Assembly: GCA_964478045.1 (NCBI GenBank)
Contig: CAYZHO010000002.1
Location: 1 to 63,346, forward strand
DNA: 63,346 nucleotides
Source of the DNA: an uncultured Myxococcales bacterium
GTDB lineage: Bacteria; Desulfobacterota; Binatia; UBA1149; SPBQ01
Direction: 5' to 3'
The notes below the pieces were generated by a model, which worked only from the letters and a program-made list of their open reading frames with translations, was not told the origin of the DNA and did no database searches. The translations under genes and the position numbers were made by a program. Shown here piece by piece: positions 977 to 49,875 of the stretch. Positions within the stretch are counted from its first letter, which is position 1. Each line of letters starts with the position of its first letter.

Positions 977-1075
977 CACCCGAGGATGCTCGGACAAGGC
1001 ACAATGGATTGAGGGAGGACAAAGACAACGTCAAGGAGGAAAGCCGGCGGTGCCGCTCGCCGGTTACGAGGACCG

Positions 1076-3494: not shown

Positions 3495-3498
3495 GTGG

Positions 3499-6152: not shown

Positions 6153-6253
6153 GCGGTGGTGGCTCATAGCACAATGGCGGCCGGACCCGCGGTTAAGGGC
6201 GAACCGGCCGGCTCGTTGCAGGACGGTTCAGAACAGAGCGTCGGAGGCCAAAA

Positions 6254-14793: not shown

Positions 14794-14836
14794 GACCTAC
14801 TCCTTCCCCTAGTCTCCCGCCTTGGGCTCTCGGCCT

Positions 14837-18704: not shown

Positions 18705-20048
18705 TCAGCCGCCGGCGCCCGCCGGTGCCTGTGCGGACTCGAGATCGTTGTACGCCGTGGCGGTAAAGAAGTCTCCCCGCTTCTTGCAGCCACGAACGGT
18801 TACGAGGAACTGGTGCGAATCCGCGGGAATCGTGCCCTCGAACAGCACGGTCATGCGCGTACCGTCGATCTTCTCCTTGACCGTGAGATCGCTGTCCTGC
18901 GGCTTCTCCTCCATTCCCGGTCCTCTGGACAGCAGGACCACCGGCTTTTCTCCTTTTTTCCACCGCCATACGTAGGCCGGCTCTCCCTTCGTCCCTAGGT
19001 CGAACGTGCGCTCGCGCTGGCCGAGCGCCCAGTAGACCTCCGCCTGGGGACACGTGTTCTCGCCGTCGTCCCAACTGATCAAGAGGCCGATCCGCTGGCC
19101 TTCCCGGACCGCCCGGACCGAAATCGGCTCGTAGTGCTGCATCCAGCCTCCGCGAATGGCCAAGCGATCGAGTTCAACGGGAGTGGCCGACTTCCAAACC
19201 GGTGCGCCGACGTCGTCCGCCAGCTTGCCCGCCACCACTGGAACCGCGCCTCGGCTGGCCTGCTTTACGTCGCGGCGCTCCTTGGCAAAGGACAGTACGT
19301 AGTGCGCGATCGCCCAGCGTTCCTCCGGGGTCATGACCTCTTTCCAAAACCCCGTCATCGGGGTGCCGTCGAGCCCGGTCAGAATGCGCATGTAGATGTC
19401 TTCCGGTTTGTTGCCCCCCTTGTAGACCCCCACCTCGAAACTGCGAGGGTGCAAGGGCTGCCCCCAGTTGTCGAGCATTTCTTCGGGCTTCTTTCCGTCG
19501 CCCTTGCCGGTTTTGCCGTGGCACTGATCACACCCGACTTTGACGTACAGCTCGGCACCCCGCTTGAGTTCCTCGGGGGTCACCGGCGGCTCGGGCGGCG
19601 CTTTTTCTCCCGGCGGGACTTCGTAAAGCTCGAACCAGCTTCCTTCTTCTCCTTCGGGCCCGCCGAGCGTCTTGATGTAGGCAACCACGTCACGAATCGC
19701 TTGCTCGCCGAGATGGCGGAACGACGGCATCCCCGTACCCGGCATGCCGTTGGTGACCGTCCGGATGAGGTCTTCGTCGGTCGGAAGCTCTCCGGTCTGG
19801 GTCGAGCGAATCTTGAAGAGCCCCGGCCGAAAATCACGCGGGCGCGGATCGAAGAGCGCCGCGCCGGGACCATCGCCCCAACCTTTCGAACCGTGGCAAA
19901 ACGCGCAGTGGTGCTCGTAAATCGCCGCCCCAGCTTTCGGATCGCCTACCTCGGCGCGCGCGGCCGCGGCAACGAGGACGCCGAGAATCAGCGCCGCAAA
20001 CGCGCCCGCTAGCAACGGATGACGTTTCGCCCCAACGTTCTTCGTCAT
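18705..20048 (-). CDS. Dihaem c-type cytochrome fused to a C-terminal EB_dh-like (EbdC-related) domain, secreted
   Basis: The ATG at 20048 (ATGA overlap with the chaperone stop) gives MTKNVGAKRHPLLAGAFAALILGVLVAAAARA. Two class-I-like haem sites (CAFCHG, CDQCHG). The C-terminal ~180 aa align by eye with the gamma subunit at 30425-31075 (VREGQRIGLLISWDDGENT versus CHDGSKLYIRLEWKDPTEN). Confidence 0.75.
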   Translation of the reverse strand: MTKNVGAKRHPLLAGAFAALILGVLVAAAARAEVGDPKAGAAIYEHHCAFCHGSKGWGDGPGAALFDPRPRDFRPGLFKIRSTQTGELPTDEDLIRTVTNGMPGTGMPSFRHLGEQAIRDVVAYIKTLGGPEGEEGSWFELYEVPPGEKAPPEPPVTPEELKRGAELYVKVGCDQCHGKTGKGDGKKPEEMLDNWGQPLHPRSFEVGVYKGGNKPEDIYMRILTGLDGTPMTGFWKEVMTPEERWAIAHYVLSFAKERRDVKQASRGAVPVVAGKLADDVGAPVWKSATPVELDRLAIRGGWMQHYEPISVRAVREGQRIGLLISWDDGENTCPQAEVYWALGQRERTFDLGTKGEPAYVWRWKKGEKPVVLLSRGPGMEEKPQDSDLTVKEKIDGTRMTVLFEGTIPADSHQFLVTVRGCKKRGDFFTATAYNDLESAQAPAGAGG

Positions 20049-20725
20049 TTCTTGACCGGTCCCTCCGTCGAGATGAGATAAGTCATATCGGCGCGGCAGT
20101 ACGTATCGGCGAGCTCGATCATCGCACGCCAAAAGGGATGGGCGTCGATCTTTGCGAGCTTCGCAACCGCCTTCGGCAACCACCGCGCCGGGTGCCGTGC
20201 GAGGAAGTCGCGCGCCGCTCGCCGCAGGGACCCCGGATCCTCCCCGTTGCGCAACGCTTCGACTTCTTTGAACGTGAGGAAATGCAGGAACTCCAATTCT
20301 GCCGTCAAGTGATCCGGCAGGTCGCGTTCCTTGGAAGAAATCGTAAGTCCAAAGTACCGGTAGAAGCGCAGGGCTTCCTCCATCACTCGCTGCCGGTCTC
20401 CACCCCAAACGCCGCCGTACAGAGGCACTGGAGGGCCACCCATGCCAACGTCGAACAGGCCGACGTAGGCCGACTGGAACTCGTCGTAGTCTTCGTCGAC
20501 CTTTTCGAGTTCGGGCCACAAGCGGTCGACCCCCTCTAGAGAATACGGAAGGTGAGCGATCACCGAGCGCGCGGCCGGGATCATCTCTCCCGACCGGGCG
20601 AACTCGTGGAAGTCCTGCCACGGAAAACTCAGCCACGAAGCCAGATACTGGTAGAGCGTGCTGCGCGCCGCCGCTGCCCGCTCGGGGCCTTCGCGAATCG
20701 AATCGATGGTTGCGATCTCGGTCAT
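20045..20725 (-). CDS. TorD/NarJ/EbdD-like redox-enzyme maturation chaperone
   Basis: 226 aa. Family-like pattern: YVGLFDVG..GPPVPLYGG, ALRFYRYFGL, LPDHLTAELEFLHFL. GAGGGAGAA RBS. Confidence 0.8.
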   Translation of the reverse strand: MTEIATIDSIREGPERAAAARSTLYQYLASWLSFPWQDFHEFARSGEMIPAARSVIAHLPYSLEGVDRLWPELEKVDEDYDEFQSAYVGLFDVGMGGPPVPLYGGVWGGDRQRVMEEALRFYRYFGLTISSKERDLPDHLTAELEFLHFLTFKEVEALRNGEDPGSLRRAARDFLARHPARWLPKAVAKLAKIDAHPFWRAMIELADTYCRADMTYLISTEGPVKK

Positions 20726-20745: not shown

Positions 20746-23559
20746 TCAGGCGACGCGTTCGACTTCGACTTTCGTGTCGCGGTCCACTTGCCCGGGTTCG
20801 TAGTGCGCGTACGACCAGCCCAGGTGACCGTACTCTCCCGCCAGTTGCGTGACTTTGAGCGGCGCCGGCGCCAGGTGCTGGTGGCTGCGGCGTCCGGCGA
20901 ACTGGAACGGCTCCCAGGCGTGGTAGACGAGGACGAACCCCGCCGGCATCGTCGCCACCACCTTGGCTCGCGCCCTGACCTCGGTCAAGTCGTTATAGAT
21001 TCGGACTTCGTCATGATCCTCGATCCCCCGCCGCCGCGCGTCCTCCGTTCCGATCAGGACGACCGGCTCGCCGCGCTGCAGGCGCAACATCAAGCGGTGA
21101 TCGCGCCAGATCGCATGAATCGACCAGCGGGCGTGACCGCCCGATAGGGTGAGCGGATAAGGCCCTCCAGCGGCGGGAGGAGCTTTATACCGGGGCAGCG
21201 CTTCGTCGAGCTCGAGGAACCACCGGTGATCCACGTAAAACTGCTGGCGTCCCGTCAGCGTCGGATAGCGCCGGCGCTTCTCGGAAAACCACCGCATCGG
21301 GACAATCGGCTCGTCGGGAGAATAATCCGAGTAGATCCCTGCAGTCCCCCCCTGCTGTCCTAGGCTGCGGATGCGCTGGTGGCCGCGCTCGCGCAGTTCG
21401 GCCAAACTCGTTCCCCGCGACACGCTCGAAACCGACAGAATGAAATCGGCCAGTGCCTCTTCGTCGTCCGCACCGAAACGCCCACCATCGCTGAAGGCAG
21501 CGCCTATCTCATCGAGCCTGCGCGTCTCGCCCAAGTAGTCCCGGTACTCGCGCACGCCTTGCTCTTTCGCCTTGCGGGCAACTCGCTCGGCAAGCCGGTG
21601 GAAGATCCACCACTCGGGACGCGACTCGCCCTGCGGCTCGACCGCTCGATCCGCCAGCGTCACGTAGGGAATCATGCCCGGGATGTACTTGAACCCCACT
21701 CGCTCGTACCAGGCCGCCGCGGGCAAGACGATGTCGCTGGCCAAGGCGGTCTCGCTCATCCGAAAGTCGACCGTTACCACGGTCTCGATCTTCGGCCACA
21801 AGCGCTCGCGCAGGAGGTCGCCGCTACGCGAGTGGCGGAGCACGTTTCCAAATACGGCCAAAGCGAACTTTGGAGTGGGCGCGCGCTTTACCGGAAACCA
21901 CCCGCGGTCGAGAGCCTCGCGAACGTAGGCGTCGACCTCGCGCGGCATGGCCGGATCCCCAAACGCACGGCGCCCGCTGCGCTCGCCGAGCTCGCCGTGC
22001 ACGTAGTGCCACAAGCCCGAAGGTACGAAATAACGGGAGAAGTCGGCAATGTTTTCTTCCGGATCGCGAAAATAACTGCGCGTTGCCAAGAGCAACAGGT
22101 CGACCAGGCCGAGGTCGCGCTGCATGGCCAGCACGGCCAGTCCTTCCATCATCACAAAGGCGCCCGAGCGCCACCCGCCTCCGGTCCTGCCGATGTTGCC
22201 CGTGACCGAAGCCAGTAGAATCTGCGAGCGCTGGAGCAGATCCGAGTGGTAGAACTTGCACGATCCGTACTGGGACAAGATCAGGGCGCGCGGAGCCGAG
22301 GCGAACTCTCGGGCAAAACGCCGGATCGTCCCGGCCGACACTCCCGTAATGCGAGCTGCTCGCTCAGGCGTATATTCGGCATCGAGCCGCCGCCGCAGCC
22401 GGGCCATGACCGGCTCGACTTCGACCCGCCGGCCGTCGCGCAGTCGCACCTTCCAGCGGCCCTCGAGCGCGGGGCGCAACGACCCGAGGGCAAGGCTGTC
22501 CGAGCGCAGCCCGTGGCTGCCCGGAGCGGGCGCAACTCGGCCGCCCGCCTCGTCCCACAAGAAGAATACTTCTTCGCTGCCCCCGTCGACTAGATCAGCT
22601 TCGCGCAGGAATCGGTCGTTGTCGGCCCTGACGAGCAACGGAAGGTCGGTTTGCTCGCGCACGTAGTCGGCATCGTACAATCCCTCAGCCAGGATCACTT
22701 GCACCGCGGCCAACGCCAGGGCGGCATCGGTTCCCGGTCGCGGGTTGATCCAAAGGTCGGCGTGGATCGCCGAAGGGCTGTAGTCGGGCGCGATCGCAAC
22801 TACCCGCCCTCCGCGGTAGCGCAACTCAGTGAGAAAGTGCGCGTCTGGAATCCGCGTCACGACTGGATTGAACGCCCACAGAACGACGTAGTCCGAGCGA
22901 AACCAGTCGTCCGAGCTCCCGTCGGTGTGCGCCGTTCCGAGCGTAATCGTCCCCCCGAAGGCAACGTCCCCGATCATCGCCATCGAGTCGGTAATCGGCG
23001 CGCCGAGCATCTTGAAGAAACGCAACGGCGCCGCCGTATGAGGCCCGAAGTCCATCTCTGGCCCCAGTTCGGCAATCAGGCCGTCGCCCCCGGCCTCGCG
23101 AACGGCCTCGACGATAGCCTCCGCGCAGCGGTCGAGCGCTTCGTCCCAGGATATGCGCTTCCAGCGGCCCTCTCCGCGGCGGCCGATCCGCACGAGCGGA
23201 TACGTGATTCGCGTGGGCCCGATGAACAAGTCGCTCGCGCACGCGCCTTTTTGACAGCCGCGCGGATTGAAGTCCGGGCACTGCCCGCACCCGTCCCCGT
23301 ACGTGCCGGCCTGCTCTTCGCGCCATACGATTCCGTCGCGCACGTAGAGCTTCCACGCACACGCCGACACGCAGTTGGCGTTCGCGTGGGTGCCGTTGAC
23401 CACCCGGTCCCACCTCCACCGCTCGCGATACAAGTCGCGCCAATCTCCGTAGGACGGCGGGACCGAGACCATCGCACGCGGCCGCGCGAAGGCCAAGCGC
23501 GAAAAGACGAGACTCGCCACCCCAAGCGCACCCGCCTTGAGAAAGGTGCGCCGGTTCAT
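20746..23559 (-). CDS. Type II DMSO-reductase-family alpha subunit, EbdA/NarG-like, Tat signal (paralog A3)
   Basis: The listed ORF runs to 24246 through A4. The ATG at 23559 gives MNRRTFLKAGALGVASLV. Motif HANANCVSAC...NPRGC. Blocks EQTDLPLLVR, YPTLTGRQQFYVDH, GGHARWSIH. 937 aa. Confidence 0.88.
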   Translation of the reverse strand: MNRRTFLKAGALGVASLVFSRLAFARPRAMVSVPPSYGDWRDLYRERWRWDRVVNGTHANANCVSACAWKLYVRDGIVWREEQAGTYGDGCGQCPDFNPRGCQKGACASDLFIGPTRITYPLVRIGRRGEGRWKRISWDEALDRCAEAIVEAVREAGGDGLIAELGPEMDFGPHTAAPLRFFKMLGAPITDSMAMIGDVAFGGTITLGTAHTDGSSDDWFRSDYVVLWAFNPVVTRIPDAHFLTELRYRGGRVVAIAPDYSPSAIHADLWINPRPGTDAALALAAVQVILAEGLYDADYVREQTDLPLLVRADNDRFLREADLVDGGSEEVFFLWDEAGGRVAPAPGSHGLRSDSLALGSLRPALEGRWKVRLRDGRRVEVEPVMARLRRRLDAEYTPERAARITGVSAGTIRRFAREFASAPRALILSQYGSCKFYHSDLLQRSQILLASVTGNIGRTGGGWRSGAFVMMEGLAVLAMQRDLGLVDLLLLATRSYFRDPEENIADFSRYFVPSGLWHYVHGELGERSGRRAFGDPAMPREVDAYVREALDRGWFPVKRAPTPKFALAVFGNVLRHSRSGDLLRERLWPKIETVVTVDFRMSETALASDIVLPAAAWYERVGFKYIPGMIPYVTLADRAVEPQGESRPEWWIFHRLAERVARKAKEQGVREYRDYLGETRRLDEIGAAFSDGGRFGADDEEALADFILSVSSVSRGTSLAELRERGHQRIRSLGQQGGTAGIYSDYSPDEPIVPMRWFSEKRRRYPTLTGRQQFYVDHRWFLELDEALPRYKAPPAAGGPYPLTLSGGHARWSIHAIWRDHRLMLRLQRGEPVVLIGTEDARRRGIEDHDEVRIYNDLTEVRARAKVVATMPAGFVLVYHAWEPFQFAGRRSHQHLAPAPLKVTQLAGEYGHLGWSYAHYEPGQVDRDTKVEVERVA

Positions 23560-23573
23560 CGCCAGTCCCTCTC

Positions 23574-26429
23574 TCACACCGGCTCGACCTCGATCGCCGT
23601 ACCGCGTGGCGTGTGGCTCGGTGCCCCGTAGCTCACACGGTAATGGATGTGCCCGTAGCCTCCAGCGAGATGGAGGGGCTTCCAGGGAGAAGCGACCGGC
23701 TCCTGCTGGCCCTTGTGCCGGCGAAACTGGTGTGGCTCCCAGGCATGGTACATGATCACCTGCCCTGGCCGCACCGCTTCGCTCACTTTGGCGAGGCACT
23801 CGAATTCTCCGACGTCGTTGAACACGCGCACCCGCGCGTTGTCCTTGATTCCGCGGGCGCGTGCGTCGCGCGCGTTCATCCATAGCGCCGGCTCTCCGCG
23901 CTGCAAGCGCATCATCAGTTCGTGGTCTCGCCAAATCGCATGAATGGACCAGCGCGTGTGGCCGCCCGTCAGCCGGAGCGGATAGTTTCCGCCCGCAGCG
24001 GGCGGCTCTTTGTGGACCGGCAGGACCTCGCCGGCCTTCACGAACCACTCGTGGTCGATGTAGAACTGCTGGCGGCCGGTCAGCGTCGGCCACGCTTCTT
24101 TCTCGTCGACCTGCCAGGAGTTGGGGTACAGAGGCTCGGCCATGTTCGGATCGCTGCAGATCGCGTTCTCGACCGAGTACATCCCGTTCTTCTCGACCGG
24201 GATGACGCCGCGTTCGAGCGCTTGCTCCCAAGTCTGGCCGCCGCACACTTCGGACTTCTCGAAGATGTACCGCAGCGCTGTGTGCGTATCCTCCGGATCG
24301 AAGCGCCCGCCGTCGCTCCAGCGGTCGAACAGCGTTTTCAAATCGTAATCGCGGCCGTGGGCGTCCTTGACCACGGGGACCCCCCGGGCCCTAGCGCGCT
24401 CCTGGATCCTGCGCGCCAGGCTTCCAAAGATCCACCACTCGTCGCGGCACTCTCCAAGCGGTTCGACCGCCTTGGCCGCCAGTACAATGTAGGGAATGTA
24501 GCTCTGGCAGTACTTGATGCTGTCTTTCTCGTAGTAACCGGCCGCCGGCAGCAGCAGGTCGCTGTAGAGGCCGGTCGTGTTCATTCGGAAGTTGACGTTC
24601 ACAATGAGCTCAAACTTCGGCCACAAGCGCTCGAGCGCGATCTGAGGAGTAGGCCACCGGCGCAACGGGTTGGGCGCGCTGAAGAAGAATACCTTTGGGT
24701 CCTTGCCCGGGGCGGGATAGACAGGAACCAGGCGCTGCTCGAGAGCAATCTTCATCGCCTGCTGGTGATCGATGCCCGCCTGAGGATCGTTGTATTCCGG
24801 CTTGGAGACCACCTCGTCGTAGCCCCCGTGGACGTAGAGCCAGGGCATCAGCGGCGTGAAGAACTCCTCCTCGAATGTGCGCTTGGTAATCAGCTTTTCG
24901 ATCTCGCGTACCGGCGGCCGCCCGATGAACCGGAGCAGCCATTCTTGCCACCACTTGATCTCATAGTTGGCAGCCATCCGTTCGAAGCCGGTCACGCGCC
25001 ACCAGGCGCCGATTCGCAATCCTCCACCGGGCCGGCCCTGGTTGCCCGTCAGCGCCATGAGCAGCGCCAGCGCGCGGTGCATCAGGTCGCTGTGGTAGTG
25101 CTTGCACGCACCCCAGGAGGCGAAGATCATTGCCGCACCGGCTTGGCCAATGTCGCGAGCCATTCGCCGCACGACCGAAGGATGCACGCCGGTGACTGCC
25201 TCGGTTTGCTCGGGCCGATACGAGCCGTTGAGCTGGCGCCGCAGGATCTCGAAAACCGGCTCGACCTCGACCCGGGTCCCGCCAGCCAGCTCTACTTCGT
25301 AACTTCCTTCGAGCGCCGGTACGAGCTTGCCCAGCGCGAGCGTCGGTTTCTTCTTTCCTTGGCTTCCGGGTGCTTCGGCGAGGCGGCCACTGGCTTCGTC
25401 CCAAAAGTAAAAAACGTCGTCACGCCCGCCTCGCTTGAGGTCTTGGGCGCGCAGGAACCGCCCGTTGTCCTTGCGAACGAGCAGCGGCAGGTCGGTCTGC
25501 TCCCGCACGTACGGCCGGTCGATCAAACCTTCTTCGATCAACACCTGCGCCGTGCTCAACGCCAGAGCCGTGTCCGACTCGATGCGGGGATTTACCCAGA
25601 GGTCGGCGTGAACCGCGCTGGCGTTGTAGTCCGGCGCCACGACGATCACCTTGGCGCCACGATAGCGGGCCTCGGTGATGAAGTGCATTTCTGGAATGCG
25701 CGTGTAAACGGGGTTGCCGCTCCAGATCACGATGCAATCGGAGCGAAACCAGTCGTCGCTGGTGCCCTCGCAATTGAACATCCCCCACGTCTGCACGCAC
25801 CCCATCGGCATGTCGCCGACCCCGGCCCAGTCCTCGATGTGGGTGGCCCGCATCAGGTTCGCCAGCCGTAGTTCGCCGCCGGTGCCGGGCCCGAAGTCGA
25901 TGTTGGTGGTGCCCTGGTCGTAGATGACGGTCTCCGGCCCGTGTTTCACGGTGGCGTCGATGATCGCGTCGGCAAACGTATCGAGCGCTTCGTCCCAGGT
26001 GATGCGCTTCCACTTTCCCTCCCCGCGCTTACCCACTCGCTTGAGCGGGTAACGCAGCCTTGAAGGAGAGACCATCAGGCTGCTGTAACACGCACCTTTC
26101 TGGCATCCGCGCGGAAAGAAGTCGGGAGCGCCACCCCGCCCGCCGTGATCGTAAACCTGCGCCTGCTCCTCGCGCAGGGCGATACCGTCTTTGACGTAGA
26201 CGTGCCACGCGCAGGCGGAAATGCAGTTCGCCCTCGTGTGGGAACACCGGGCGACTTTGTCCCACGTCCACTTGGCGCGATAGACGTCCTTCCAATCCCC
26301 GTAGTTGGGCTGCGGCGCAGGCCCACCGGCCGCTTGGCGCGGGCGGGCAAATTCCAGCGCGTTGAGAGCCAGCACCGCAGCTACCGCCCCAGACGCCTTC
26401 AAGAACTCGCGTCGCGTGATCACCGGCAT
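23574..26429 (-). CDS. Type II DMSO-reductase-family alpha subunit, EbdA/NarG-like, Tat signal (paralog A4)
   Basis: The ATG at 26429 gives MPVITRREFLKASGAV. Motif HTRANCISAC...FPRGC. Blocks EQTDLPLLVR, WPTLTGRQQFYIDHEWF, GGHTRWSIH. 951 aa. Confidence 0.88.
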   Translation of the reverse strand: MPVITRREFLKASGAVAAVLALNALEFARPRQAAGGPAPQPNYGDWKDVYRAKWTWDKVARCSHTRANCISACAWHVYVKDGIALREEQAQVYDHGGRGGAPDFFPRGCQKGACYSSLMVSPSRLRYPLKRVGKRGEGKWKRITWDEALDTFADAIIDATVKHGPETVIYDQGTTNIDFGPGTGGELRLANLMRATHIEDWAGVGDMPMGCVQTWGMFNCEGTSDDWFRSDCIVIWSGNPVYTRIPEMHFITEARYRGAKVIVVAPDYNASAVHADLWVNPRIESDTALALSTAQVLIEEGLIDRPYVREQTDLPLLVRKDNGRFLRAQDLKRGGRDDVFYFWDEASGRLAEAPGSQGKKKPTLALGKLVPALEGSYEVELAGGTRVEVEPVFEILRRQLNGSYRPEQTEAVTGVHPSVVRRMARDIGQAGAAMIFASWGACKHYHSDLMHRALALLMALTGNQGRPGGGLRIGAWWRVTGFERMAANYEIKWWQEWLLRFIGRPPVREIEKLITKRTFEEEFFTPLMPWLYVHGGYDEVVSKPEYNDPQAGIDHQQAMKIALEQRLVPVYPAPGKDPKVFFFSAPNPLRRWPTPQIALERLWPKFELIVNVNFRMNTTGLYSDLLLPAAGYYEKDSIKYCQSYIPYIVLAAKAVEPLGECRDEWWIFGSLARRIQERARARGVPVVKDAHGRDYDLKTLFDRWSDGGRFDPEDTHTALRYIFEKSEVCGGQTWEQALERGVIPVEKNGMYSVENAICSDPNMAEPLYPNSWQVDEKEAWPTLTGRQQFYIDHEWFVKAGEVLPVHKEPPAAGGNYPLRLTGGHTRWSIHAIWRDHELMMRLQRGEPALWMNARDARARGIKDNARVRVFNDVGEFECLAKVSEAVRPGQVIMYHAWEPHQFRRHKGQQEPVASPWKPLHLAGGYGHIHYRVSYGAPSHTPRGTAIEVEPV

Positions 26430-30424: not shown

Positions 30425-31075
30425 TCACTCCGCAAGCTGAAACTCGATCCAGTTCTCCGTAAAGCCCTTGTAGCCGGCCCTTTCGCCGTGGCTTCCTTCC
30501 CAAACCGCTACGCCGAACTTGGACGAGGCGCCCGGGGCCAGCCGCACGGACTTACCGCCCCCCGCACCGGCGAGGTCGCGCGCGAGCACGAGCAGCCATC
30601 GGTCGCCCTTGTGGACCGCCTTGGCTTCGACCGCCTCCCCGGTCGGCTCGGTGGTGCCGACTCCTTTCGCCCACACCGAGCGGCCCTCCTCGCTGTCCGC
30701 GCGCCACTGCCACCCGTTGACCCACTGCTGCTCGTTGCCCATCGTGTTGATCGGGGCATCCTTGCCAATCGGGAACAGCACCGCAGCGCCGTCCGGAAAC
30801 ACGTTGTTGTCGGTCGGCTCCCGGTTTTCCGTGGGGTCCTTCCACTCGAGGCGAATGTAGAGCTTGCTGCCGTCGTGGCACAGCCTCGCCTCGACCTGCT
30901 TGACGGCGTTGATCTCCTTCTTGTCCTTCCACGCCGTGCGCGTATATGGCGTCGGCTGGTTGCCGATCGGCGTGGGCTTGAGCTCGAGCGACAGCGGCTT
31001 CACGGCGCTCCATGCGGAGGACGTCGGGTCGAGGAGCTTGTCGTGAGCCGCGCTGACCTTCTTGACTACCAGCAT
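30425..31075 (-). CDS. EbdC-like (EB_dh family) haem b gamma subunit, no N-terminal signal peptide
   Basis: 216 aa, matching the size of type II DMSOR gamma subunits. Candidate Met (PINTMGN) and Lys (ERAGYKGFTENW) haem ligands. Strong GGGAGGG RBS 6-7 nt before the ATG. The upstream in-frame sequence is hydrophilic, so no hidden signal peptide exists. Confidence 0.78.
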   Translation of the reverse strand: MLVVKKVSAAHDKLLDPTSSAWSAVKPLSLELKPTPIGNQPTPYTRTAWKDKKEINAVKQVEARLCHDGSKLYIRLEWKDPTENREPTDNNVFPDGAAVLFPIGKDAPINTMGNEQQWVNGWQWRADSEEGRSVWAKGVGTTEPTGEAVEAKAVHKGDRWLLVLARDLAGAGGGKSVRLAPGASSKFGVAVWEGSHGERAGYKGFTENWIEFQLAE

Positions 31076-31698
31076 GTGAGACCCTCCCTGCTCGTTCTTA
31101 CCTTTTCGGTTCGTTGTCCCCCGGTCACTAACAGGCGCACTCGCACGAGCCGCGCCCGCAGGTTGCGCACTGTACGCCCGAGACTAGCCAGTACGTGCAG
31201 TGGAATCATCACGTACAGCGCATAGCTGAACACGTCGTGCAGCGTGTAGGACCAGTCGATCACCGGATCGGGGAGACCCCGCTGAAACCACAGCAGAAAC
31301 CCGGTTACCACGAAGACGGCGCCCGAAACGATCGTGAACCAGAGGTTGATCGCGTGGATGGCCAACTTCTCCAGCCGCCAACTGCGCAACTGGATCGTTT
31401 CCCATGCTTCGGCCGGCCCCAGCGCAAAGGCGAGCAGGGGCACGACGAGCATCGCCACTCCCGCCCACTCGTGCCACCACGCTACCGTTTGGCCGTAGCC
31501 GCCGATCAAGCGCGCTCGCCAATCCGGGTACTGAATCAGCAGCCCCGTCGCCACCAGCACGAACACGACCGTGGCGTACAGGAAGTGGAACCAAGGATAC
31601 GAGGCCCACGGTTCGAAAGCCCGGCTGGAGACCGGCTCAGCCGGGGCTTCGACCGGAGTCTCAAGGTCCTCGGCCAATGATGTCCGCTGCGCGTTCAC
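31066..31698 (-). CDS. Four-helix membrane dihaem cytochrome b (FdnI / Ni-Fe-hydrogenase cytochrome b-like)
   Basis: The GTG at 31698 forms a GTGA overlap with the A6 stop. Four hydrophobic helices each carry His (WFHFLY, WWHEWAG, AIHAINLW, TLHDV..IPLHVL). The 3' end overlaps the gamma gene start by 10 nt. Confidence 0.65.
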   Translation of the reverse strand: MNAQRTSLAEDLETPVEAPAEPVSSRAFEPWASYPWFHFLYATVVFVLVATGLLIQYPDWRARLIGGYGQTVAWWHEWAGVAMLVVPLLAFALGPAEAWETIQLRSWRLEKLAIHAINLWFTIVSGAVFVVTGFLLWFQRGLPDPVIDWSYTLHDVFSYALYVMIPLHVLASLGRTVRNLRARLVRVRLLVTGGQRTEKVRTSREGLTCW

Positions 31699-34600
31699 GC
31701 GACCTTCCTCATGCCCACGGCAACTGCTCGGTCGGCCTGCACCGGTTGCCAGTTCCACCGCCAGTAACGCAGGTGTCCGTAGCCGCCGGCAAAGTGGAGA
31801 TACTTGACCATCCCGGGAATTGCCGCGTCGTAACTACGCCAGTTCGGAAACTGGTACGGCTCCCACGCGTGGTAGATGACGACTTGACCTGGCCGCACAG
31901 AAGGTGCCGTGATGATGTGAACCTGGAACCGGTCGAAGTCGTTGTATACTTCGACCAGGTCCCCGTCCTTTGCCCCAATCCGCTCGGCGTCCTTCGGGTT
32001 GACGAACAGGCCCGGCCGTCCCCGGTGCGTGTACTGGATCAGCTTGTTGACCACCCAGATCGAGTGGATACTCCAGCGCAAGTGCCCGCTCGTCATGCGG
32101 AACGGGTAGTCGCCACCCATCTTCGGGTTCGGCTTGAAGACCGGCAGCTCCTCGCCCGCTTCCAGGAACCAGTCGTGGTCGATGTAGAACTGGGCCCGGC
32201 GCGAGTACGTCGGATAGGGCACCTTGTCCCGCACGTGCCATTGTAAAGCGACCACCGGCTTGTCCGGCTCGATGTCGCAGGAGGTGTTGAGCGAGACCGG
32301 ATCGTACGGGTCGAGCCCCGTCATCCGGTGAAAGCCCTTTTCTTTGTAGTCCTCGAGCGTCGCGCTCTGGTCATAGAGCCCGATCCTGCGCTGATCGTCG
32401 ATCCATACTTTGAGCGCTTCGAGGTAGCCCTCGCGATTGACCGGCAGCTTGCGCGTGAACAAATCGTGGGCGTCCTCGTAGGTGCGCTTGATGCCGAGCC
32501 GCCGTGCCATTCCCGGCAGCACCACCGAGACGGCCCGCTCGAACAGCGCCTTGCCCATGATTCGGTGCAGGGCTCGCATGTAGCCCGGCAGCAAGGCCAC
32601 CAGGTCCGACGTCATGCGCTCTTCCTGGCGGAAGCTGTCGATCTTGCGCTCGCGGGCCCGGTCGCGAATCTTTTCCGACAGCCGGCCGAAGATCTCCCAC
32701 TCGGTGATGCAGTCGCCGACCGGCTCGACCGCCTTGTCCGTAAACGTGTTGTAACTGACCGTAGGCGTGAAGAAGCGAAAATCCTCGCGTTCGTAGAACC
32801 AGGCCGGCGGCAGCACCACGTCCGCGTACAGGCAGGTCGTGCTCATGCGCGGGTCCACGCACACCACCAGCTTGAGCTTCGGCCACAAGTGCTTGAGCAG
32901 GCGATTGAGCCCGCCGCGCGTGCGGCGCAGGGTGCTGCCGGCGATTCCGATCAGGACCTGAGGCGGCTTGTCCGGACCTGGCCGCATCAGGCCTTCCCAC
33001 CAGCCTTTCTTCTTCGCTTCCTCGACGTACTCGTCGAAGGAGCGCTTCATCGTGGGGTCCCCCCACTCTTTCTTGTTCCACACCTCCCGGTAGCCGGCGT
33101 GGTGGTACCAGTAGAACGCCGGCGGGACCATGCTCGTCAGCCGCCCGATGATCCGCTCGGATTCGATCGCCGCTTGCTCGTCCGTCAGGGTCGGATCGCG
33201 CTGGCGCAACAGCTTGATGAAGTTCCAGTGATTCTTGGTGATCCGCTCGAACTCTTCATCCCCGTGCTTCTCGCGCGCCATGGAGATGTGGGAGGCGTGC
33301 CCCGACTCGTTCCAGCCGGCGCTCCCCGTGCCCGAACGGCCCCAGTTGCCGCTCAGGGCTAGAACCAGCGACTGCGCCCGCTCGATCAAATCCCCGTGAT
33401 AGTACTTGGCCGAGTTCCACCCGAGGATGATCATCGTCTTTTTGGTCGCGACCAGGCGGGCCAGTCGCCGAATCACGCCGGGTGCCGTTCCGCACAGTTT
33501 CGACGCCTTCTCCGGCGTGTAGTCACGCTCGATCCGCTCGCGCAGCAGCGAGAACACCGTTCGCACCTCGACCGTCTCGCCGTTGGCGAGCTTGACCTCG
33601 GCGCGCGCGTCGAGCTTGGGATCGATGCCCTGCCATCGCAGCGTATCGAGCGGCGCCCGCGCCGGTTTGCCCGTGCGCGCATCGAGCACGTAGAGCTGGT
33701 CTTCGCGAACGCCTTCGCCTTCGAGCTCGGGCCCGCGCAGGTACTTGCGCGTATCGGTGCGCACGAGCAGCGGCAGATCCGTCTGCTCCTTGACGAACTC
33801 CTCGTTGACCAGCCCTTCGGAGATCATCACATGCGCCATGCCCAGGGCCAGTGCCGCATCGGCGCCGAAGTCGACCGGCACGTACAAGTCCGCGTGCATC
33901 GTCGAGGGGCTTGCATCCGGCGCAATCGTGACCACCGTCGCGCCGCGGTAGCGGGCCTCGGAGATGAAATGGTACGAGGGAATCCGGGTGTAGATCGGGT
34001 TCTTGTGCCAGATGAGAATGACGTCCGCGTTGAACCAGTCGTCGACCGAGCTGGCCTGCTGGAACTTACCGAACGTGATGTACTGGCCGACGTTGAAGTC
34101 GTTGATCAGGCCGTCGACGTCCAAGGTCGTCATTCCCTGGGACATCGCAAACCGGCTAGCCGCCTCGGCCTGAAAGATGCCGATGTTGCCGGGTCCCATC
34201 TCCATGATGCACGACTCGGGCCCGACGTTTTGCTGCGCGTCGATGATCGCATCGGCGACCATCGTTAGGGCCTCGTCCCAGGTAGCCCGGCGCCATTTGC
34301 CCTGGCCGCGCTCGCCGACTCGGATGAGCGGATACTTGATCCGCTCCTTGGCGTACATCACGTTGCCGAAGCTCGCCCCTTTCTGGCAGCCGCGGGGATT
34401 CATGTCCGGCATTTCCGGATTGAGCTGCGGGTAGTGGCCGGTTTGTTCCTCGCGAATGACCATCCCGTCCTTAACGTAGACCGTCCACGAGCAATTGCCC
34501 GGGTAGCAGTCCACGCAGTGAGTGACCCGGTGCCTGCTGTCCCAGGTCCACTTTTCGGCCATCAGCTTCTGCCAGTTCTCATAGGGCTTGGGCGGCTCCA

Positions 34601-34730
34601 CGGCCGGTGCCGCTTCGGCCCGAAGGGGAGCCAGACGCGACAAGGTCAGACCGACCACGGTCACCGCCGAGGTCTTGAGGAACTCTCTGCGCGTAATGTT
34701 AAGGCCCGTCATCTCTCCCGGTCCTTTCAT
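31695..34730 (-). CDS. Type II DMSO-reductase-family alpha subunit, divergent paralog (A6), Tat signal
   Basis: MKGPGEMTGLNITRREFLKTSAV (alternative ATG at 34712). Motif HCVDC-x4-C-x34-C. Blocks EQTDLPLLVR, YPTYSRRAQFYIDHDWF, SGHLRWSIH. It is the longest paralog (1005-1011 aa), with extra internal segments. Confidence 0.88.
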   Translation of the reverse strand: MKGPGEMTGLNITRREFLKTSAVTVVGLTLSRLAPLRAEAAPAVEPPKPYENWQKLMAEKWTWDSRHRVTHCVDCYPGNCSWTVYVKDGMVIREEQTGHYPQLNPEMPDMNPRGCQKGASFGNVMYAKERIKYPLIRVGERGQGKWRRATWDEALTMVADAIIDAQQNVGPESCIMEMGPGNIGIFQAEAASRFAMSQGMTTLDVDGLINDFNVGQYITFGKFQQASSVDDWFNADVILIWHKNPIYTRIPSYHFISEARYRGATVVTIAPDASPSTMHADLYVPVDFGADAALALGMAHVMISEGLVNEEFVKEQTDLPLLVRTDTRKYLRGPELEGEGVREDQLYVLDARTGKPARAPLDTLRWQGIDPKLDARAEVKLANGETVEVRTVFSLLRERIERDYTPEKASKLCGTAPGVIRRLARLVATKKTMIILGWNSAKYYHGDLIERAQSLVLALSGNWGRSGTGSAGWNESGHASHISMAREKHGDEEFERITKNHWNFIKLLRQRDPTLTDEQAAIESERIIGRLTSMVPPAFYWYHHAGYREVWNKKEWGDPTMKRSFDEYVEEAKKKGWWEGLMRPGPDKPPQVLIGIAGSTLRRTRGGLNRLLKHLWPKLKLVVCVDPRMSTTCLYADVVLPPAWFYEREDFRFFTPTVSYNTFTDKAVEPVGDCITEWEIFGRLSEKIRDRARERKIDSFRQEERMTSDLVALLPGYMRALHRIMGKALFERAVSVVLPGMARRLGIKRTYEDAHDLFTRKLPVNREGYLEALKVWIDDQRRIGLYDQSATLEDYKEKGFHRMTGLDPYDPVSLNTSCDIEPDKPVVALQWHVRDKVPYPTYSRRAQFYIDHDWFLEAGEELPVFKPNPKMGGDYPFRMTSGHLRWSIHSIWVVNKLIQYTHRGRPGLFVNPKDAERIGAKDGDLVEVYNDFDRFQVHIITAPSVRPGQVVIYHAWEPYQFPNWRSYDAAIPGMVKYLHFAGGYGHLRYWRWNWQPVQADRAVAVGMRKVA

Positions 34731-35227
34731 CCGTACAGCTCGTCGATCGCGTCGCTGATGCGGCGTACCATGTCCCGGAACGACTCGATTTCCTCGGGGC
34801 GAAAACGCTCGAGCAGGCGGCGCAGCCTAGCGATCTGCATCTCCTGAACGTCGCGCACGACTCGCCAACCCTCTCTCGTCAAGTAAAGATGGAAGCTACG
34901 GCGGTCGCTTGGGTCGGGACGTTTCTCGACCCACCCGAGCGAGCACAGCCGGCCGAGCGCCGTGCACGCCGACGGCGTGGTGATCGCCAGGCGGCGCGCG
35001 GCCTCAACGACCGACAGGCCCGGGTTGATTGAGAGCATTTCGAGGAAACGCAGTTGGCTCGGCGTGGCGCCGTAGCGGGTGTCGCTTACGACGTCGGAGA
35101 CGAAGTGCTTGAAGATCGCCGTAAGCAGACCCCCCAGCTCGTGGACGATCGCTAGTTCGACCGGCCCCGGCGAGTGTTCTCCCGGCGCCACGGTGGCGGC
35201 GCCGGGTACGGCTGTCTGGCGCTGCAT
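34727..35227 (-). CDS. MarR-family transcriptional regulator
   Basis: Winged-helix pattern: TPSQLRFLEMLSINPGLSVVEAARRLAITTPSACTALGRLCSLGWVEKRPDPSDRRSFHLYLTREG. Its stop forms an ATGA overlap with the A6 start. Confidence 0.85.
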   Translation of the reverse strand: MQRQTAVPGAATVAPGEHSPGPVELAIVHELGGLLTAIFKHFVSDVVSDTRYGATPSQLRFLEMLSINPGLSVVEAARRLAITTPSACTALGRLCSLGWVEKRPDPSDRRSFHLYLTREGWRVVRDVQEMQIARLRRLLERFRPEEIESFRDMVRRISDAIDELYG

Positions 35228-35454: not shown

Positions 35455-38289
35455 ATGAACGGCGTTCACGTTTCCCGGCGCGAGTTTCTCAGGATTTCCA
35501 GCGCTACCCTTCTCGTGCTGAGCCTAGCCTCGCTCGAGCCTGCCGCGGCGCTGGCTGGGCGCAAGCCGAAGGCACCCGCGTACGGGGACTGGCGCGACCT
35601 GTACCGCAGAAAGTTCACTTGGGATCGCCGCGTGCGTTGCACTCACGTGGTCAACTGCTGGTATCAGCGCAATTGTGCTTGGGACGTGTTCGTCAAAGAC
35701 GGAGTCGTGCTGCGCGAGGAGCAGGCCGGACAATACCCGGCCGGATGCGGGGATGCGCCCGACTTCAACCCCCGCGGGTGCCAGAAGGGAGCCTGTTACT
35801 CCTCGGTCGTCAACTCGCCGGCGCGCCTGCTTTATCCGCTGAAGCGAGTCGGCCCGCGCGGGACCTGCAAGTGGAAGCGCGTGACCTGGGACGAAGCGCT
35901 CGACGAAATCGCCGACCGCTTGATCGACGCGGCCGTCGATCCGGGCCCAGAAACGATCGTCCTTGACATCGGCGGCAGCCTGGCCTCCTCGACCTGGCGC
36001 TTAGGCATTCGCCGGATCATCGACCTGCTCGACGGAATCGAGCTCGATACGAATACCGAGCTCGACGACGGGCAAGGCGGAGCCTCCGTCACGTTCGGCA
36101 CGCCGGTAGCGTCGCGGTCGGCCGACGACTTGTTCCGGTCGGACGTCATTCTGATTTGGGGTGCCAATCCGGTCTACACGCAGATTCCAAATGCCCACTT
36201 CATCAACGAGGCACGCTACCGGGGCGCCACGGTCGTGACGATCGCCCCGGACTACTCTGCATCGGCCATTCACGCGGACTTGTATGTGCCGATCCGCCCC
36301 GGCACCGACGCTGCCCTGGCGCTTGGAGTAGCCCGCCACATGATCGCCACGGGGCGCTACGACACCGACTTCATCCGCTCCCAGACCGACCTGCCCTTGC
36401 TGGTGCGCGAGGACGGGCGCTTCCTGCGCCAGGCCGATCTGCAGCCGGGAGGCCGAACCGACGTCTTCTACGCTCTCGATGAGCGCACGGGGGAAATCGT
36501 CGAGGCACCGGCAAGCCACTTGGACTGGGGCTCGGCCAGACCGGCCCTTACGGGATCGGCCCGCGTGGCCACCCGCGAGGGTAAAGTGCTCGTGCGGCCG
36601 GTTTTCGAGATCCTGCGCGAGCGGCTCGAGCGCGGTTATCGGCTCGAACAAGTCGCCGCGATCTGCGGTACGCCGGCACCGGTCGTCGAGCGCTTCGCCG
36701 AAATCGTAGCCAGCGCCCGCAGCCTGGCCGGCATTGCCGGCTCCTGCATTCCGAAGTTCTACCACGGTGACTTGATGATGCGGGCGCAAATTCTCGTGTT
36801 CGTGCTCGGCGGCCACCTCGGGCGCCCGGGGGCGGGATACGACACGTGCCCGTTCCTGCGACTCGACGGCCTCGACCGTTTCGGAGCATCCCAGATCGAA
36901 GGACTGCTAGCCAAGCTCAAGATGGCACCGGCCCTCGTGCGCAAGCGCCTGGCCGGCGAAACCAAAGAGCGCGTGCTCGCCGACCTGATGCGGGACTACA
37001 TGGAAACGGCAAACGTTTTCTCGTCGGTCCTGTACTGGCGCGAGCACGGCCACCTCAAGGAGCGGACCGACGCGCCTTGGGGCCGCGACCTTCGGCGCCC
37101 CGTGTCGGCCTACGTCGAACGCTCGCTGGCCAGCGGGTGGCAGCGCAGGCCGCCCGCCCACGGCCCCCGCGTCTTATTCCTGGCGGGGAGCAACCTGGTT
37201 CGCCGCTTGCGTTCTTCCGACCTACTCGTCGAGCGCGCCTTTCCCAGTATCGACCTGATCGTGACGACCGACGTGCGCATGACCACCAGCTGTCTGTACT
37301 CCGACATCCTTCTGCCCGGTGCCACTTCGTACGAAAAAGACGACGTTCCGAACTGGTTCACGCTCCTGTCGCCTTTCCTGCACATCACGCAAGCAGCGGT
37401 GCCGCCGCGGGGCGAGGCAAAACCCGAGTGGACGATTCACGCGCTCTTGGCCCGGGCGATCGAGCGGCGCGCCCGGGCCCGGGGCATCAAGACCTACCGC
37501 GACCGAAGCGGCAAGCTGCGCCGCCTCGACGACTTCTATCGCCGCTTTACGGCAGGCGGCAAGTACGGCCCCGAGGCTCAGTCTGAAGTCGCCGCCGAGG
37601 TCGTCGAAAAAACCTCGTTCGTGCCGGCCACGTTCGATGAACTACGGCCCAAAGGCTTCGTCCGCGTAAGTGGAATCGGCAGCCATCCCATCAACCTCGG
37701 CAACGCCACCGACGTCCGGCCCGACCAGCCGGTGGTCAACCGTCAGTGGCGCCGCACGCGTCCCGGGCCGTGGCCCACTCTGACGCGTCGGATCCAGTTC
37801 TATATCGATCACCCTCTGTATCTCGAGCTCGGCGAAGAGCTGCCCGTACACAAGGAACCGCCCGCCTCCGGCGGGAACTTTCCGCTCATTCTCACCAGCG
37901 GGCATACGCGCTGGAGCATTCACTCGGGCTGGCGCAACGTGCCCTGGCTGCTCTACTTGCAACGGGGCCAGGCAGCCGCGTTCGTCGCCGCCCCCGACGC
38001 CCGCGCACGCGGCATCCGCGACGGCGATACGATCCGAATATGGAACGACGTGGGGGAGTTCTTCGTCCAGGCCAAAGTGTCGGCAGCCGTGAGACCGGGA
38101 ACGGTGATTCTCTACCATGCCTGGGAGGACTACCAATTCCCGGGGCGCCGCGGCTACCGCAACGTTCTGCCCTCTCCGCTCAATCCGGTCGAGTTGGCCG
38201 GTGACTACAATCACTTGCGGCCGGTTCCCGCCAGTCTTCAGCCGGGGCAGAACGATCGCGATACCCGCGTGGACATCGCACCCGCCTGA
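35455..38289 (+). CDS. Type II DMSO-reductase-family alpha subunit, EbdA/NarG-like, Tat signal (paralog A7), stand-alone
   Basis: GAGGAGGAGAGG RBS. MNGVHVSRREFLRISSATLL. Motif HVVNCWYQRNC...NPRGC. Blocks SQTDLPLLVR, WPTLTRRIQFYIDH, SGHTRWSIH. 944 aa. Confidence 0.9.
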   Translation: MNGVHVSRREFLRISSATLLVLSLASLEPAAALAGRKPKAPAYGDWRDLYRRKFTWDRRVRCTHVVNCWYQRNCAWDVFVKDGVVLREEQAGQYPAGCGDAPDFNPRGCQKGACYSSVVNSPARLLYPLKRVGPRGTCKWKRVTWDEALDEIADRLIDAAVDPGPETIVLDIGGSLASSTWRLGIRRIIDLLDGIELDTNTELDDGQGGASVTFGTPVASRSADDLFRSDVILIWGANPVYTQIPNAHFINEARYRGATVVTIAPDYSASAIHADLYVPIRPGTDAALALGVARHMIATGRYDTDFIRSQTDLPLLVREDGRFLRQADLQPGGRTDVFYALDERTGEIVEAPASHLDWGSARPALTGSARVATREGKVLVRPVFEILRERLERGYRLEQVAAICGTPAPVVERFAEIVASARSLAGIAGSCIPKFYHGDLMMRAQILVFVLGGHLGRPGAGYDTCPFLRLDGLDRFGASQIEGLLAKLKMAPALVRKRLAGETKERVLADLMRDYMETANVFSSVLYWREHGHLKERTDAPWGRDLRRPVSAYVERSLASGWQRRPPAHGPRVLFLAGSNLVRRLRSSDLLVERAFPSIDLIVTTDVRMTTSCLYSDILLPGATSYEKDDVPNWFTLLSPFLHITQAAVPPRGEAKPEWTIHALLARAIERRARARGIKTYRDRSGKLRRLDDFYRRFTAGGKYGPEAQSEVAAEVVEKTSFVPATFDELRPKGFVRVSGIGSHPINLGNATDVRPDQPVVNRQWRRTRPGPWPTLTRRIQFYIDHPLYLELGEELPVHKEPPASGGNFPLILTSGHTRWSIHSGWRNVPWLLYLQRGQAAAFVAAPDARARGIRDGDTIRIWNDVGEFFVQAKVSAAVRPGTVILYHAWEDYQFPGRRGYRNVLPSPLNPVELAGDYNHLRPVPASLQPGQNDRDTRVDIAPA

Positions 38290-42822: not shown

Positions 42823-42837
42823 CCCGCTAGCGTCCTT

Positions 42838-49859: not shown

Positions 49860-49875
49860 CGCCGGTCTCGCTTGC

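Follow-up and report, generated by a model that had tools for sequence, protein, structure and literature searches.

A PF01292-type membrane cytochrome b encoded in an ethylbenzene dehydrogenase-like operon, a candidate membrane component of molybdenum hydroxylases in uncultured bacteria

We analysed a short gene at positions 31066..31698 (minus strand) of a 63,346-nucleotide stretch of DNA from an uncultured bacterium of the Binatia lineage (contig CAYZHO010000002.1 of assembly GCA_964478045.1; the whole stretch is called the window below). The gene is embedded in an operon for molybdenum enzymes of the ethylbenzene dehydrogenase (EBDH) type, and its product, termed cyt b, is predicted to be a four-helix membrane cytochrome b with two haems. 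Judged by its sequence relatives, cyt b represents a distinct clade of the family PF01292 that is dedicated to EBDH-type enzymes. On balance we favour a role of cyt b as a fourth, membrane-integral component of hydroxylase systems of the EBDH and steroid C25 dehydrogenase (S25DH) type, in which the DOMON-type gamma subunit would dock on cyt b and the enzyme would be tethered to the membrane. In this system, hydroxylases that are normally soluble in the periplasm may thus be connected to the membrane, either electrically or as a mere tether.

The gene and its overlaps

The gene of cyt b lies within a maximal open reading frame (ORF) at 31066..31758 on the minus strand and encodes 210 amino acids (aa). 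Its GTG start shares bases with the TGA stop of the preceding alpha gene (alpha A) in a GTGA overlap, and its stop codon at 31066-31068 falls 10 nt within the ORF of gamma, which starts at 31075. Both overlaps had been described in a sequence-only reading of this DNA and were found as described. The features needed here are the following:

31066..31698, minus strand: cyt b, 210 aa, PF01292 (Pfam, hhalign, AlphaFold2, Foldseek, dN/dS)
31703..31710, minus strand: Shine-Dalgarno sequence GAGGAAGG, 4 nt 5' of the GTG of cyt b (read from the sequence)

The GTG start and an N-terminus of the form xxxxQTSLAE are kept in the orthologues of cyt b. GC content at the three codon positions is 0.66/0.50/0.73, the pattern of coding DNA, and the ratio of non-synonymous to synonymous substitution rates (dN/dS) amounts to 0.15–0.17 in comparison to three orthologues, close to the value determined for gamma. 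The ORF is a genuine gene under purifying selection. An origin as a spurious overlapping frame was considered and rejected because of the dN/dS of 0.15–0.17 and the conserved GTG start.

Family, helices and haem ligands of cyt b

Cyt b matched the Pfam family PF01292 (prokaryotic cytochrome b561/FdnI/HyaC; Ni_hydr_CYTB) at 41.7 bits, above the gathering score of 30.1 (E 1.4e-10). The match spans residues 36–176 of cyt b and profile positions 8–166 of 179, and PF01292 is also found in the precomputed annotation of nearly all cyt b homologues. Kyte-Doolittle analysis showed four hydrophobic segments at residues 37–55, 78–96, 113–137 and 156–174, and an AlphaFold2 model built helices at 34–56, 69–93, 109–137 and 144–192. 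The four hydrophobic helices of the sequence-only reading were thereby recovered, and the comparison with cytochrome b families which it had proposed gave a match above the gathering score. As the N-terminal tail is acidic and the C-terminal tail very basic, both termini are placed in the cytoplasm by the positive-inside rule.

The model was calculated from a 50-sequence alignment and reached a predicted local distance difference test score (pLDDT) of 84.7 and a predicted TM-score (pTM) of 0.75, with core helices above pLDDT 90; it replaced an earlier, mediocre model made from 11 sequences (pLDDT 72.8). When the model was compared with the Protein Data Bank (PDB) by Foldseek, the three top matches were two entries of HyaC and one of CybB, all of them dihaem cytochromes of PF01292, at a probability of 0.99–1.00 and TM-scores of 0.53–0.59 on the target. 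Searching the PDB with the single sequence of cyt b gave no match, and with the family profile FdnI (1kqf_C) was the sole meaningful match (E 0.0028). Aligning the 50-sequence profile to E. coli FdnI with hhalign yielded E 3.8e-5 over 139 columns; the same comparison with E. coli HyaC was not significant (E 0.085).

The alignment by hhalign pairs H38, H76, H154 and H168 of cyt b with H18, H57, H155 and H169 of FdnI, and the pair in the fourth transmembrane (TM) helix was recovered in the PDB profile search as well. All four histidines are conserved in 98–100% of the 50 sequences, and H154 and H168 are spaced by 14 residues as are H155 and H169 in FdnI. In FdnI (1kqf), H18 and H169 are the ligands of the cytoplasmic-side haem, and H57 and H155 those of the periplasmic-side haem. 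The segments of cyt b are assigned as follows, all on the minus strand:

31531..31599: TM1, residues 34–56, with H38 corresponding to FdnI H18 of the cytoplasmic-side haem (hydropathy, hhalign, AlphaFold2, conservation)
31489..31530: periplasmic loop 1, residues 57–70, PDWRARLIGGYG (family conservation)
31420..31488: TM2, residues 71–93, with H76 corresponding to FdnI H57 of the periplasmic-side haem (hydropathy, hhalign, conservation)
31288..31365: TM3, residues 112–137, with H115 opposite FdnI Q113, not conserved, distant members often having His118 (hhalign, conservation)
31174..31248: TM4, residues 151–175, with H154 and H168 corresponding to FdnI H155 and H169 (profile search, hhalign, conservation)

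Five helix-embedded histidines had been noted before in the motifs FHF, WWHEW, AIHAI, TLHDV and PLHVL, and all five motifs are present in the translation. Four of these histidines are conserved at the ligand positions of FdnI, so that the worry raised with the sequence-only reading, histidines off the haem-ligand positions, did not come true. The fifth, H115, was discarded as a ligand for lack of conservation, with His at this position in only a minority of the 50 sequences. At the cytoplasmic end of TM3 a histidine is found at position 115 in the close clade and one helical turn further on, at position 118, in 70% of the family. The FdnI residue opposite H115 is Q113, which lines the site of the quinone analogue HQNO (2-heptyl-4-hydroxyquinoline N-oxide) in the 1kqg structure. 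The TM3 histidine at 115 or 118 may mark a quinone pocket of cyt b.

The most conserved segment of cyt b, above the helices, is the loop of residues 57–70 with a mean frequency of the top residue of 0.79, and R61, G66, G67 and Y68 are invariant among the 50 sequences. This conservation fits a role in docking or in the haem pocket, which makes the loop a candidate docking or haem-bP surface. Cyt b had been called FdnI-like, which stands as far as the family PF01292 and the alignment of the ligands are concerned. It does not extend to the formate dehydrogenase gamma equivalog TIGR01583, on which cyt b scored 26.2 bits at a cut-off of 115.85; cyt b is therefore not an orthologue of FdnI.

Relatives and conserved gene neighbourhood

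We determined the distribution of cyt b at several levels. Among 5.8 billion proteins a word-indexed search retrieved 11 matches; a profile search with the family gave 57, and 82 clusters were found at E<=0.001 among 1.84 billion representatives. In 185,579 species-representative genomes nine loci with a cyt b homologue were detected by a pattern-based scan, which can miss distant members. All nine are from metagenome-assembled genomes (MAGs) of uncultured bacteria with the labels Myxococcales, Binatia, Deltaproteobacteria, Myxococcota or Acidobacteria. Members of this rare clade were found in uncultured MAGs only, Dadabacteria being a further label.

Homologue loci compared are designated by L-numbers, and 18 of them were considered for the neighbourhood. 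In 16 of the 18, genes for EBDH-type alpha, beta or gamma subunits adjoin the cyt b homologue. The order alpha-cytb-gamma-beta-alpha-alpha-alpha is kept at 70–73% identity of cyt b (L001–L004, L006, L007) and also at 50–59% identity (L008–L010). At 26–35% identity a gamma-beta-alpha-alpha-delta cluster stands beside cyt b, divergently oriented, in L005, L011, L015 and L018, and the homologue of L013 is located upstream of alpha-beta. In L016/L017 the homologue overlaps an alpha gene. Such a constant neighbourhood supports a functional link between cyt b and EBDH-type enzymes. The two exceptions, L012 and L014, were weak matches of the genome scan and were set aside as out-group proteins: L012 is a DUF4405 protein with no molybdenum enzyme beside it, and L014 belongs to a classical alpha-beta-cytochrome b operon like that of formate dehydrogenase.

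These data bear on a reading in which cyt b has no part in electron transfer to or from the molybdenum enzymes, and is for example a superoxide:quinone oxidoreductase like CybB or a stand-alone b561 that travels with the cluster. CybB (5oc0) indeed ranks in the top three of the structural matches, with the lowest root-mean-square deviation (4.5 Å), and many PF01292 proteins stand alone. We nevertheless regard this reading as very improbable: both the start and the stop of cyt b are embedded by overlaps in the alpha-gamma gene string, the association with EBDH-type genes persists down to 26% identity and through several rearrangements, and the clade is found almost only beside such genes, the exceptions L012 and L014 being out-group proteins.

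The operon and its molybdenum enzymes

On the minus strand the operon reads MarR, alpha A, cyt b, gamma, beta, alpha B, alpha C, alpha D, delta and dihaem cytochrome c (cyt c). A further alpha gene, alpha E, is transcribed divergently, and a second cluster of beta2, alpha F and alpha G, which lacks genes for gamma, delta or a cytochrome, is located further downstream.

34727..35227, minus strand: regulator of the MarR family, first gene of the operon, retained in L001, L002, L006 and L007
31695..34730, minus strand: alpha A, 1011 aa, with a twin-arginine translocation (Tat) signal; the outlier alpha, which precedes cyt b in the closer clades
30425..31075, minus strand: gamma, 216 aa, EB_dh/DOMON-like mono-haem b subunit, with conserved Met112/Lys203, no signal peptide and no TM helix
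29343..30404, minus strand: beta, 353 aa, four Fe-S clusters, no C-terminal TM helix
26465..29329, minus strand: alpha B, 954 aa, RR motif
23574..26429, minus strand: alpha C, Tat signal, start set at the Met before ITRREFLK
20746..23559, minus strand: alpha D, 937 aa, N-terminus MNRRTFLK
20045..20725, minus strand: delta, chaperone of the NarJ/EbdD type (TIGR03482, 163.4 bits at a cut-off of 152.3)
18705..20048, minus strand: dihaem cyt c, 447 aa, Sec signal ending AARA/EV, two CXXCH motifs, degenerate EB_dh-like C-terminal domain
35455..38289, plus strand: alpha E, 944 aa, RR motif, divergently transcribed
9062..15904, minus strand: second cluster, with beta2 at 14837-15904, alpha F at 11941-14793 and alpha G at 9062-11944

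Altogether the window holds seven alphas, two betas, one gamma, one delta and an APH-family kinase. Twin-arginine motifs are present in all seven alphas. So many Tat-signal alphas beside only two betas and a single gamma give a pattern like that of S25DH, in which electron-transfer subunits appear to be shared.

Compared with PDB entries, alpha A matched EbdA (2ivf_A) best with 787 bits, far above PcrA (479) and NarG (222). Its D211 aligns with the molybdenum ligand D223 of EbdA, as does the FS0 motif H-x3-C-x4-C with its counterpart. On TIGR03479 alpha A scored 920.6 bits, slightly below the cut-off of 984.75, and with 36–40% identity to the six other alphas it is the outlier among them. Beta exceeded the cut-off of TIGR03478 (526.8 bits vs 480.7). 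Gamma reached 100 bits on Pfam EB_dh (gathering score 33.3) and 143.4 bits on TIGR03477, under the cut-off of 169.85, and its Met112 and Lys203 align to the haem ligands Met108 and Lys201 of EbdC. The EBDH-type setting deduced before from the sequence was thus confirmed by the best match of alpha to EbdA, by the EB_dh domain of gamma and by TIGR03478 for beta. Scores on the equivalogs of EBDH proper stayed below their cut-offs throughout (EbdA 818.6 vs 2000, EbdB 462 vs 740, EbdC 117 vs 400, EbdD 93.8 vs 360), and the enzymes are therefore relatives of EBDH, not orthologues.

A hydropathy scan of beta, beta2 and gamma revealed no hydrophobic segment. With alpha, beta and gamma all of the classical soluble kind, cyt b is the only membrane protein of the operon. 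The mode of attachment known from formate dehydrogenase-N (Fdh-N), by a C-terminal TM helix of beta, is absent here.

A dihaem cytochrome c encoded by the last gene of the operon

The gene for the dihaem cyt c overlaps delta. This conserved, Sec-exported protein had been overlooked in the sequence-only reading. Its C-terminal domain gave a sub-threshold match to EB_dh (E 5e-4), and remote homologues carry a full EB_dh domain (PF09459). Homologues follow directly after delta in L029, L030, L031 and L032, and in two cases cyt c and cyt b homologues were found on the same contig (P0140 with P0094, P0142 with P0096). A metagenome scan with the dihaem cyt c gave no match. The window protein belongs to a large family of dihaem-c and EB_dh fusions that includes members from Verrucomicrobia, Methylomirabilales, Rokubacteria and Gemmatimonadetes.

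Since a conserved dihaem cyt c is part of the operon, the canonical soluble route from the gamma haem is encoded as well. Cyt b could then pair with the dihaem cyt c as a small quinol:cytochrome c module, or one working in the reverse direction, while the hydroxylases stay soluble and donate to cyt c in the classical way. The Sec signal, the position at the end of the same operon, the retention after delta in L029–L032 and the occurrence on contigs with cyt b homologues speak for such a pairing, and through its EB_dh-like C-terminal domain cyt c might dock on cyt b just as gamma might. On the other side, the genes with which cyt b is coupled in translation are alpha and gamma, and cyt c is located about 11 kb downstream. 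In L005 and L015, which carry distant cyt b homologues, delta ends the operon and no cyt c follows. The C-terminal domain of cyt c, judged by eye and not by alignment, also seems to lack the region of the Met ligand. We therefore consider a separate module of cyt b and cyt c unlikely, though the least so of the alternatives to a hydroxylase component. Owing to the translational coupling, gamma is most likely the docking partner of cyt b; the alternative is the DOMON-like domain of the dihaem cyt c.

Proposed docking and electron transfer

The analysis shows the family of cyt b, its pattern of haem ligands, its topology and purifying selection, its coupling in translation and its constant neighbourhood. 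From these we infer a direct docking of cyt b and gamma, a quinone as the partner of cyt b and a direction of electron flow from the enzyme to the membrane. In the proposed mechanism cyt b would form a four-helix bundle with both termini inside and two b haems, one held by H76 and H154 near the periplasmic face and the other by H38 and H168 near the cytoplasmic face. The Tat-exported enzyme modules, having no membrane segment, would consist of up to seven alternative alphas sharing one gamma and two betas. The DOMON-like haem-b gamma would seat on the conserved periplasmic loop of cyt b, and a wire of three b haems would lead from the enzyme to the cytoplasmic end of the bundle, the place where FdnI binds menaquinone. 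A coupling of cyt b to quinone would be plausible. Cyt b would also keep the hydroxylases at the membrane surface, the site of very hydrophobic substrates of the isoprenoid, sterol or hopanoid type.

A number of observations weigh against this assignment. The E-values of the Foldseek matches to HyaC and CybB are weak (0.13–0.23), and hhalign gave a probability of 71% for the cyt b profile and FdnI. No fusion of cyt b and gamma was seen among the homologues, whose lengths are about 160–250 aa. Beta has no TM helix of the kind that ties FdnH and HyaA to their cytochromes b. In one genome cyt b-alpha (L016, 10001-13407) is separated by about 12 kb from the gamma operon (L031, 7595-17090) on the same 955-kb contig, the latter reading TetR-gamma-beta-delta-cyt c-alpha-alpha; co-transcription of cyt b and gamma is thus not obligatory. 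The conserved soluble dihaem cyt c could carry all electrons. Energetics have to be considered too: in EBDH, potentials of +256 mV for the gamma haem b and +30 mV for the ethylbenzene/phenylethanol couple have been reported (PMC8840923). If the gamma haem of the window enzyme is near +256 mV as in EBDH, the step from gamma to typical quinones would be uphill, and with a substrate couple at +30 mV the driving force would be too small for an electrogenic loop.

From a couple at +30 mV, reduction of ubiquinone would gain some tens of millivolts and that of menaquinone would be uphill, while moving electrons inward across the membrane has to be paid for with about the membrane potential. For these reasons an energy-conserving loop of the Fdh-N type is improbable unless potentials differ greatly from those of EBDH, and a redox loop that generates proton-motive force seems unlikely here. 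The energy conservation that had been suggested as possible from the sequence is accordingly doubtful on the EBDH potentials (PMC8840923). More likely, cyt b would tether the enzymes and link them, electroneutrally or with low gain, to a quinone of high potential, in parallel to the soluble dihaem cyt c.

The same potentials would favour electron flow in the opposite direction. Cyt b would then oxidise quinol and feed gamma, with at least alpha A being a quinol-dependent periplasmic reductase comparable to the selenate, chlorate and periplasmic nitrate reductases of the same branch. A Met/Lys haem of high potential would receive electrons downhill from typical PF01292 haems, several type II reductases receive their electrons via an EB_dh gamma (PMC8840923), and alpha A is the outlier of the seven alphas. 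However, the nearest solved relative of alpha A is EbdA, by a wide margin over PcrA and NarG, and the APH kinase, the DUF7065/7064 gene and the extra alphas of the supercluster resemble an oxidative cascade for sterol side chains (PMC7411048, PMC8449060). We judge reverse flow to be quite improbable, more so than the pairing of cyt b with cyt c.

Taking the role of cyt b as a hydroxylase component further, there might be, among uncultured Binatia/Myxococcota-like bacteria, a lineage of membrane-bound anaerobic C-H hydroxylases of the EBDH/S25DH type, in which the gamma haem sits on an FdnI-like cyt b, three b haems form a wire to quinone, and membrane isoprenoids (sterol or hopanoid side chains) are oxidised independently of O2. 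We put this forward tentatively and with more doubt than belief. If true, the EBDH enzyme branch would gain its first quinone-coupled member, and CYBDOM a split prokaryotic counterpart.

For EBDH, S25DH, Ddh, Ser and Clr, physiological electron acceptors have largely been assumed rather than identified. The operon and its relatives provide two candidate acceptors beside the enzyme genes, a membrane dihaem cyt b and a dihaem cyt c, and the acceptor question can therefore be addressed by co-expression. Membrane binding, if it occurs, would explain how such enzymes gain access to extremely hydrophobic lipid substrates. A natural electron outlet could also aid the biotechnological use of these hydroxylases, for example in the synthesis of 25-hydroxyvitamin D3.

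Comparison with known systems

EBDH, S25DH, Ddh, Ser and Clr are treated in the literature as soluble periplasmic enzymes with soluble cytochromes c as partners (PMC3578206, PMC8840923, PMC7411048), in agreement with what the sequence-only reading had stated for this branch. Searching the literature for a cytochrome b, FdnI or Hxd3 together with an EBDH-like or S25DH enzyme retrieved no paper, in a search that left most subscription-journal papers outside, so that a precedent is possible. A membrane-bound selenate reductase, 'Srn', was considered as precedent and rejected, as it is of the DmsABC type with a haem-free anchor. Together with an EBDH-type enzyme, cyt b represents a new anchor combination in the modular repertoire of molybdenum enzymes with bis-pyranopterin guanine dinucleotide cofactor (Mo-bisPGD).

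FdnI, the gamma subunit of E. coli Fdh-N (1kqf chain C), shares with cyt b the family PF01292, four TM helices, both termini inside and the four aligned haem histidines, and in both cases the partner is a Tat-exported periplasmic Mo-bisPGD enzyme. The similarity is remote, however, and the partner of cyt b is a type II enzyme with an extra soluble haem-b subunit and a beta without the TM helix of FdnH. The driving force available here is also far below that of formate in the FdnI system. HyaC of hydrogenase-1 (4gd3/6g94) and the superoxide oxidase CybB (5oc0) are dihaem four-helix bundles of PF01292, as is predicted for cyt b. Their partners differ: HyaC serves a NiFe hydrogenase whose small subunit bears a TM helix, and CybB has no partner. 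NarI of NarGHI resembles the proposed cyt b as a dihaem anchor which links a type II enzyme to quinol, but belongs to an unrelated family, serves a cytoplasmic enzyme and works without an EB_dh gamma. NarI (3ir6_C) appeared low in the Foldseek list of the cyt b model (E 5.7).

The closest characterised relatives of the window alpha, beta, gamma and delta are EbdABCD of Aromatoleum aromaticum (2ivf). Shared with EBDH are the Asp molybdenum ligand, the FS0 motif, the Met/Lys haem ligands and the Tat signal on alpha. EBDH, in contrast, is a soluble periplasmic heterotrimer which donates to cytochrome c and has no cytochrome b gene (PMC8840923, PMC3578206), and the window order of alpha-cytb-gamma-beta followed by further alphas differs from that of EBDH.

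The S25DH and C26 dehydrogenases of Sterolibacterium denitrificans are like the window system in having many alphas, few beta-gamma pairs, one chaperone and a periplasmic location (PMC7411048, PMC8449060), a likeness of architecture. The C25/C26 system is linked to a kinase-dependent dehydration (PMC7411048, PMC8449060), and an APH kinase is present in the window. By published accounts S25DH is a soluble enzyme that passes its electrons to cytochrome c, and a membrane cytochrome b is not reported in the searchable literature.

The same design as that proposed for cyt b and gamma is known from the eukaryotic CYBDOM proteins (b561 plus DOMON), in which a dihaem TM cytochrome b is combined with an extracytoplasmic DOMON haem b (PMC10784552). 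Stacking of the DOMON haem on the dihaem b561 to a three-haem wire is established there (PMC10784552). CYBDOM differs in being a single fused polypeptide with ascorbate as donor and in the b561 family PF03188, on which cyt b scored 18.4 bits, below the cut-off.

Wider gene context of the window

Between the two molybdenum clusters lie genes for an APH-family phosphotransferase (15999-17192, plus strand) and a DUF7065/DUF7064 (Rv3169-like) protein (17732-18673, plus strand). The genes delta-cyt c-APH-DUF8350-DUF7065/7064-alpha are co-linear in L029 (11335-16727) and L030 (6548-11940). In Sterolibacterium denitrificans a C25 hydroxylase, a 25-hydroxysteroid kinase, a still-unidentified phospho-lyase and a C26 hydroxylase act in a cascade (PMC7411048, PMC8449060, PMC11061730). 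The gene string of the window resembles such a cascade of S25DH, kinase, lyase and C26 dehydrogenase (S26DH), and by this analogy DUF7065/7064 and DUF8350 would be candidates for the lyase.

On the other side of the operon hpnI-like, hpnK and hpnJ genes (38402-41740, minus strand) adjoin alpha E, with HpnJ at 742 bits against a cut-off of 577.6. Genes of the hpnI/hpnK/hpnJ type make the cyclitol-ether side chain of hopanoids, and the same glycosyltransferase is found beside alpha E in L001. The location of hpn genes beside alpha E may hint at triterpenoid substrates. By analogy the supercluster probably serves the O2-independent oxidation of isoprenoid side chains, a role that is consistent with a membrane-associated enzyme without proving it.

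At the beginning of the window (143-9042, plus strand) we found genes for three multihaem c-type cytochromes with Paired_CXXCH_1 and MtrC/MtrF-like domains, for two beta-propeller proteins of the NHL type and for an AhpC/TSA-TPR protein, as well as an ORF of 723 aa that matched no family. This block looks like an extracytoplasmic electron-transfer module. The stretch at 41734-54289 (minus strand) contains membrane-lipid and export genes, among them a GFO/IDH/MocA oxidoreductase, a CDP-alcohol phosphatidyltransferase, an LPG-synthase-like TM protein, a MacB-type ABC exporter and a TolC-like outer-membrane protein. An ORF of 2283 aa is located at 56383-63234.

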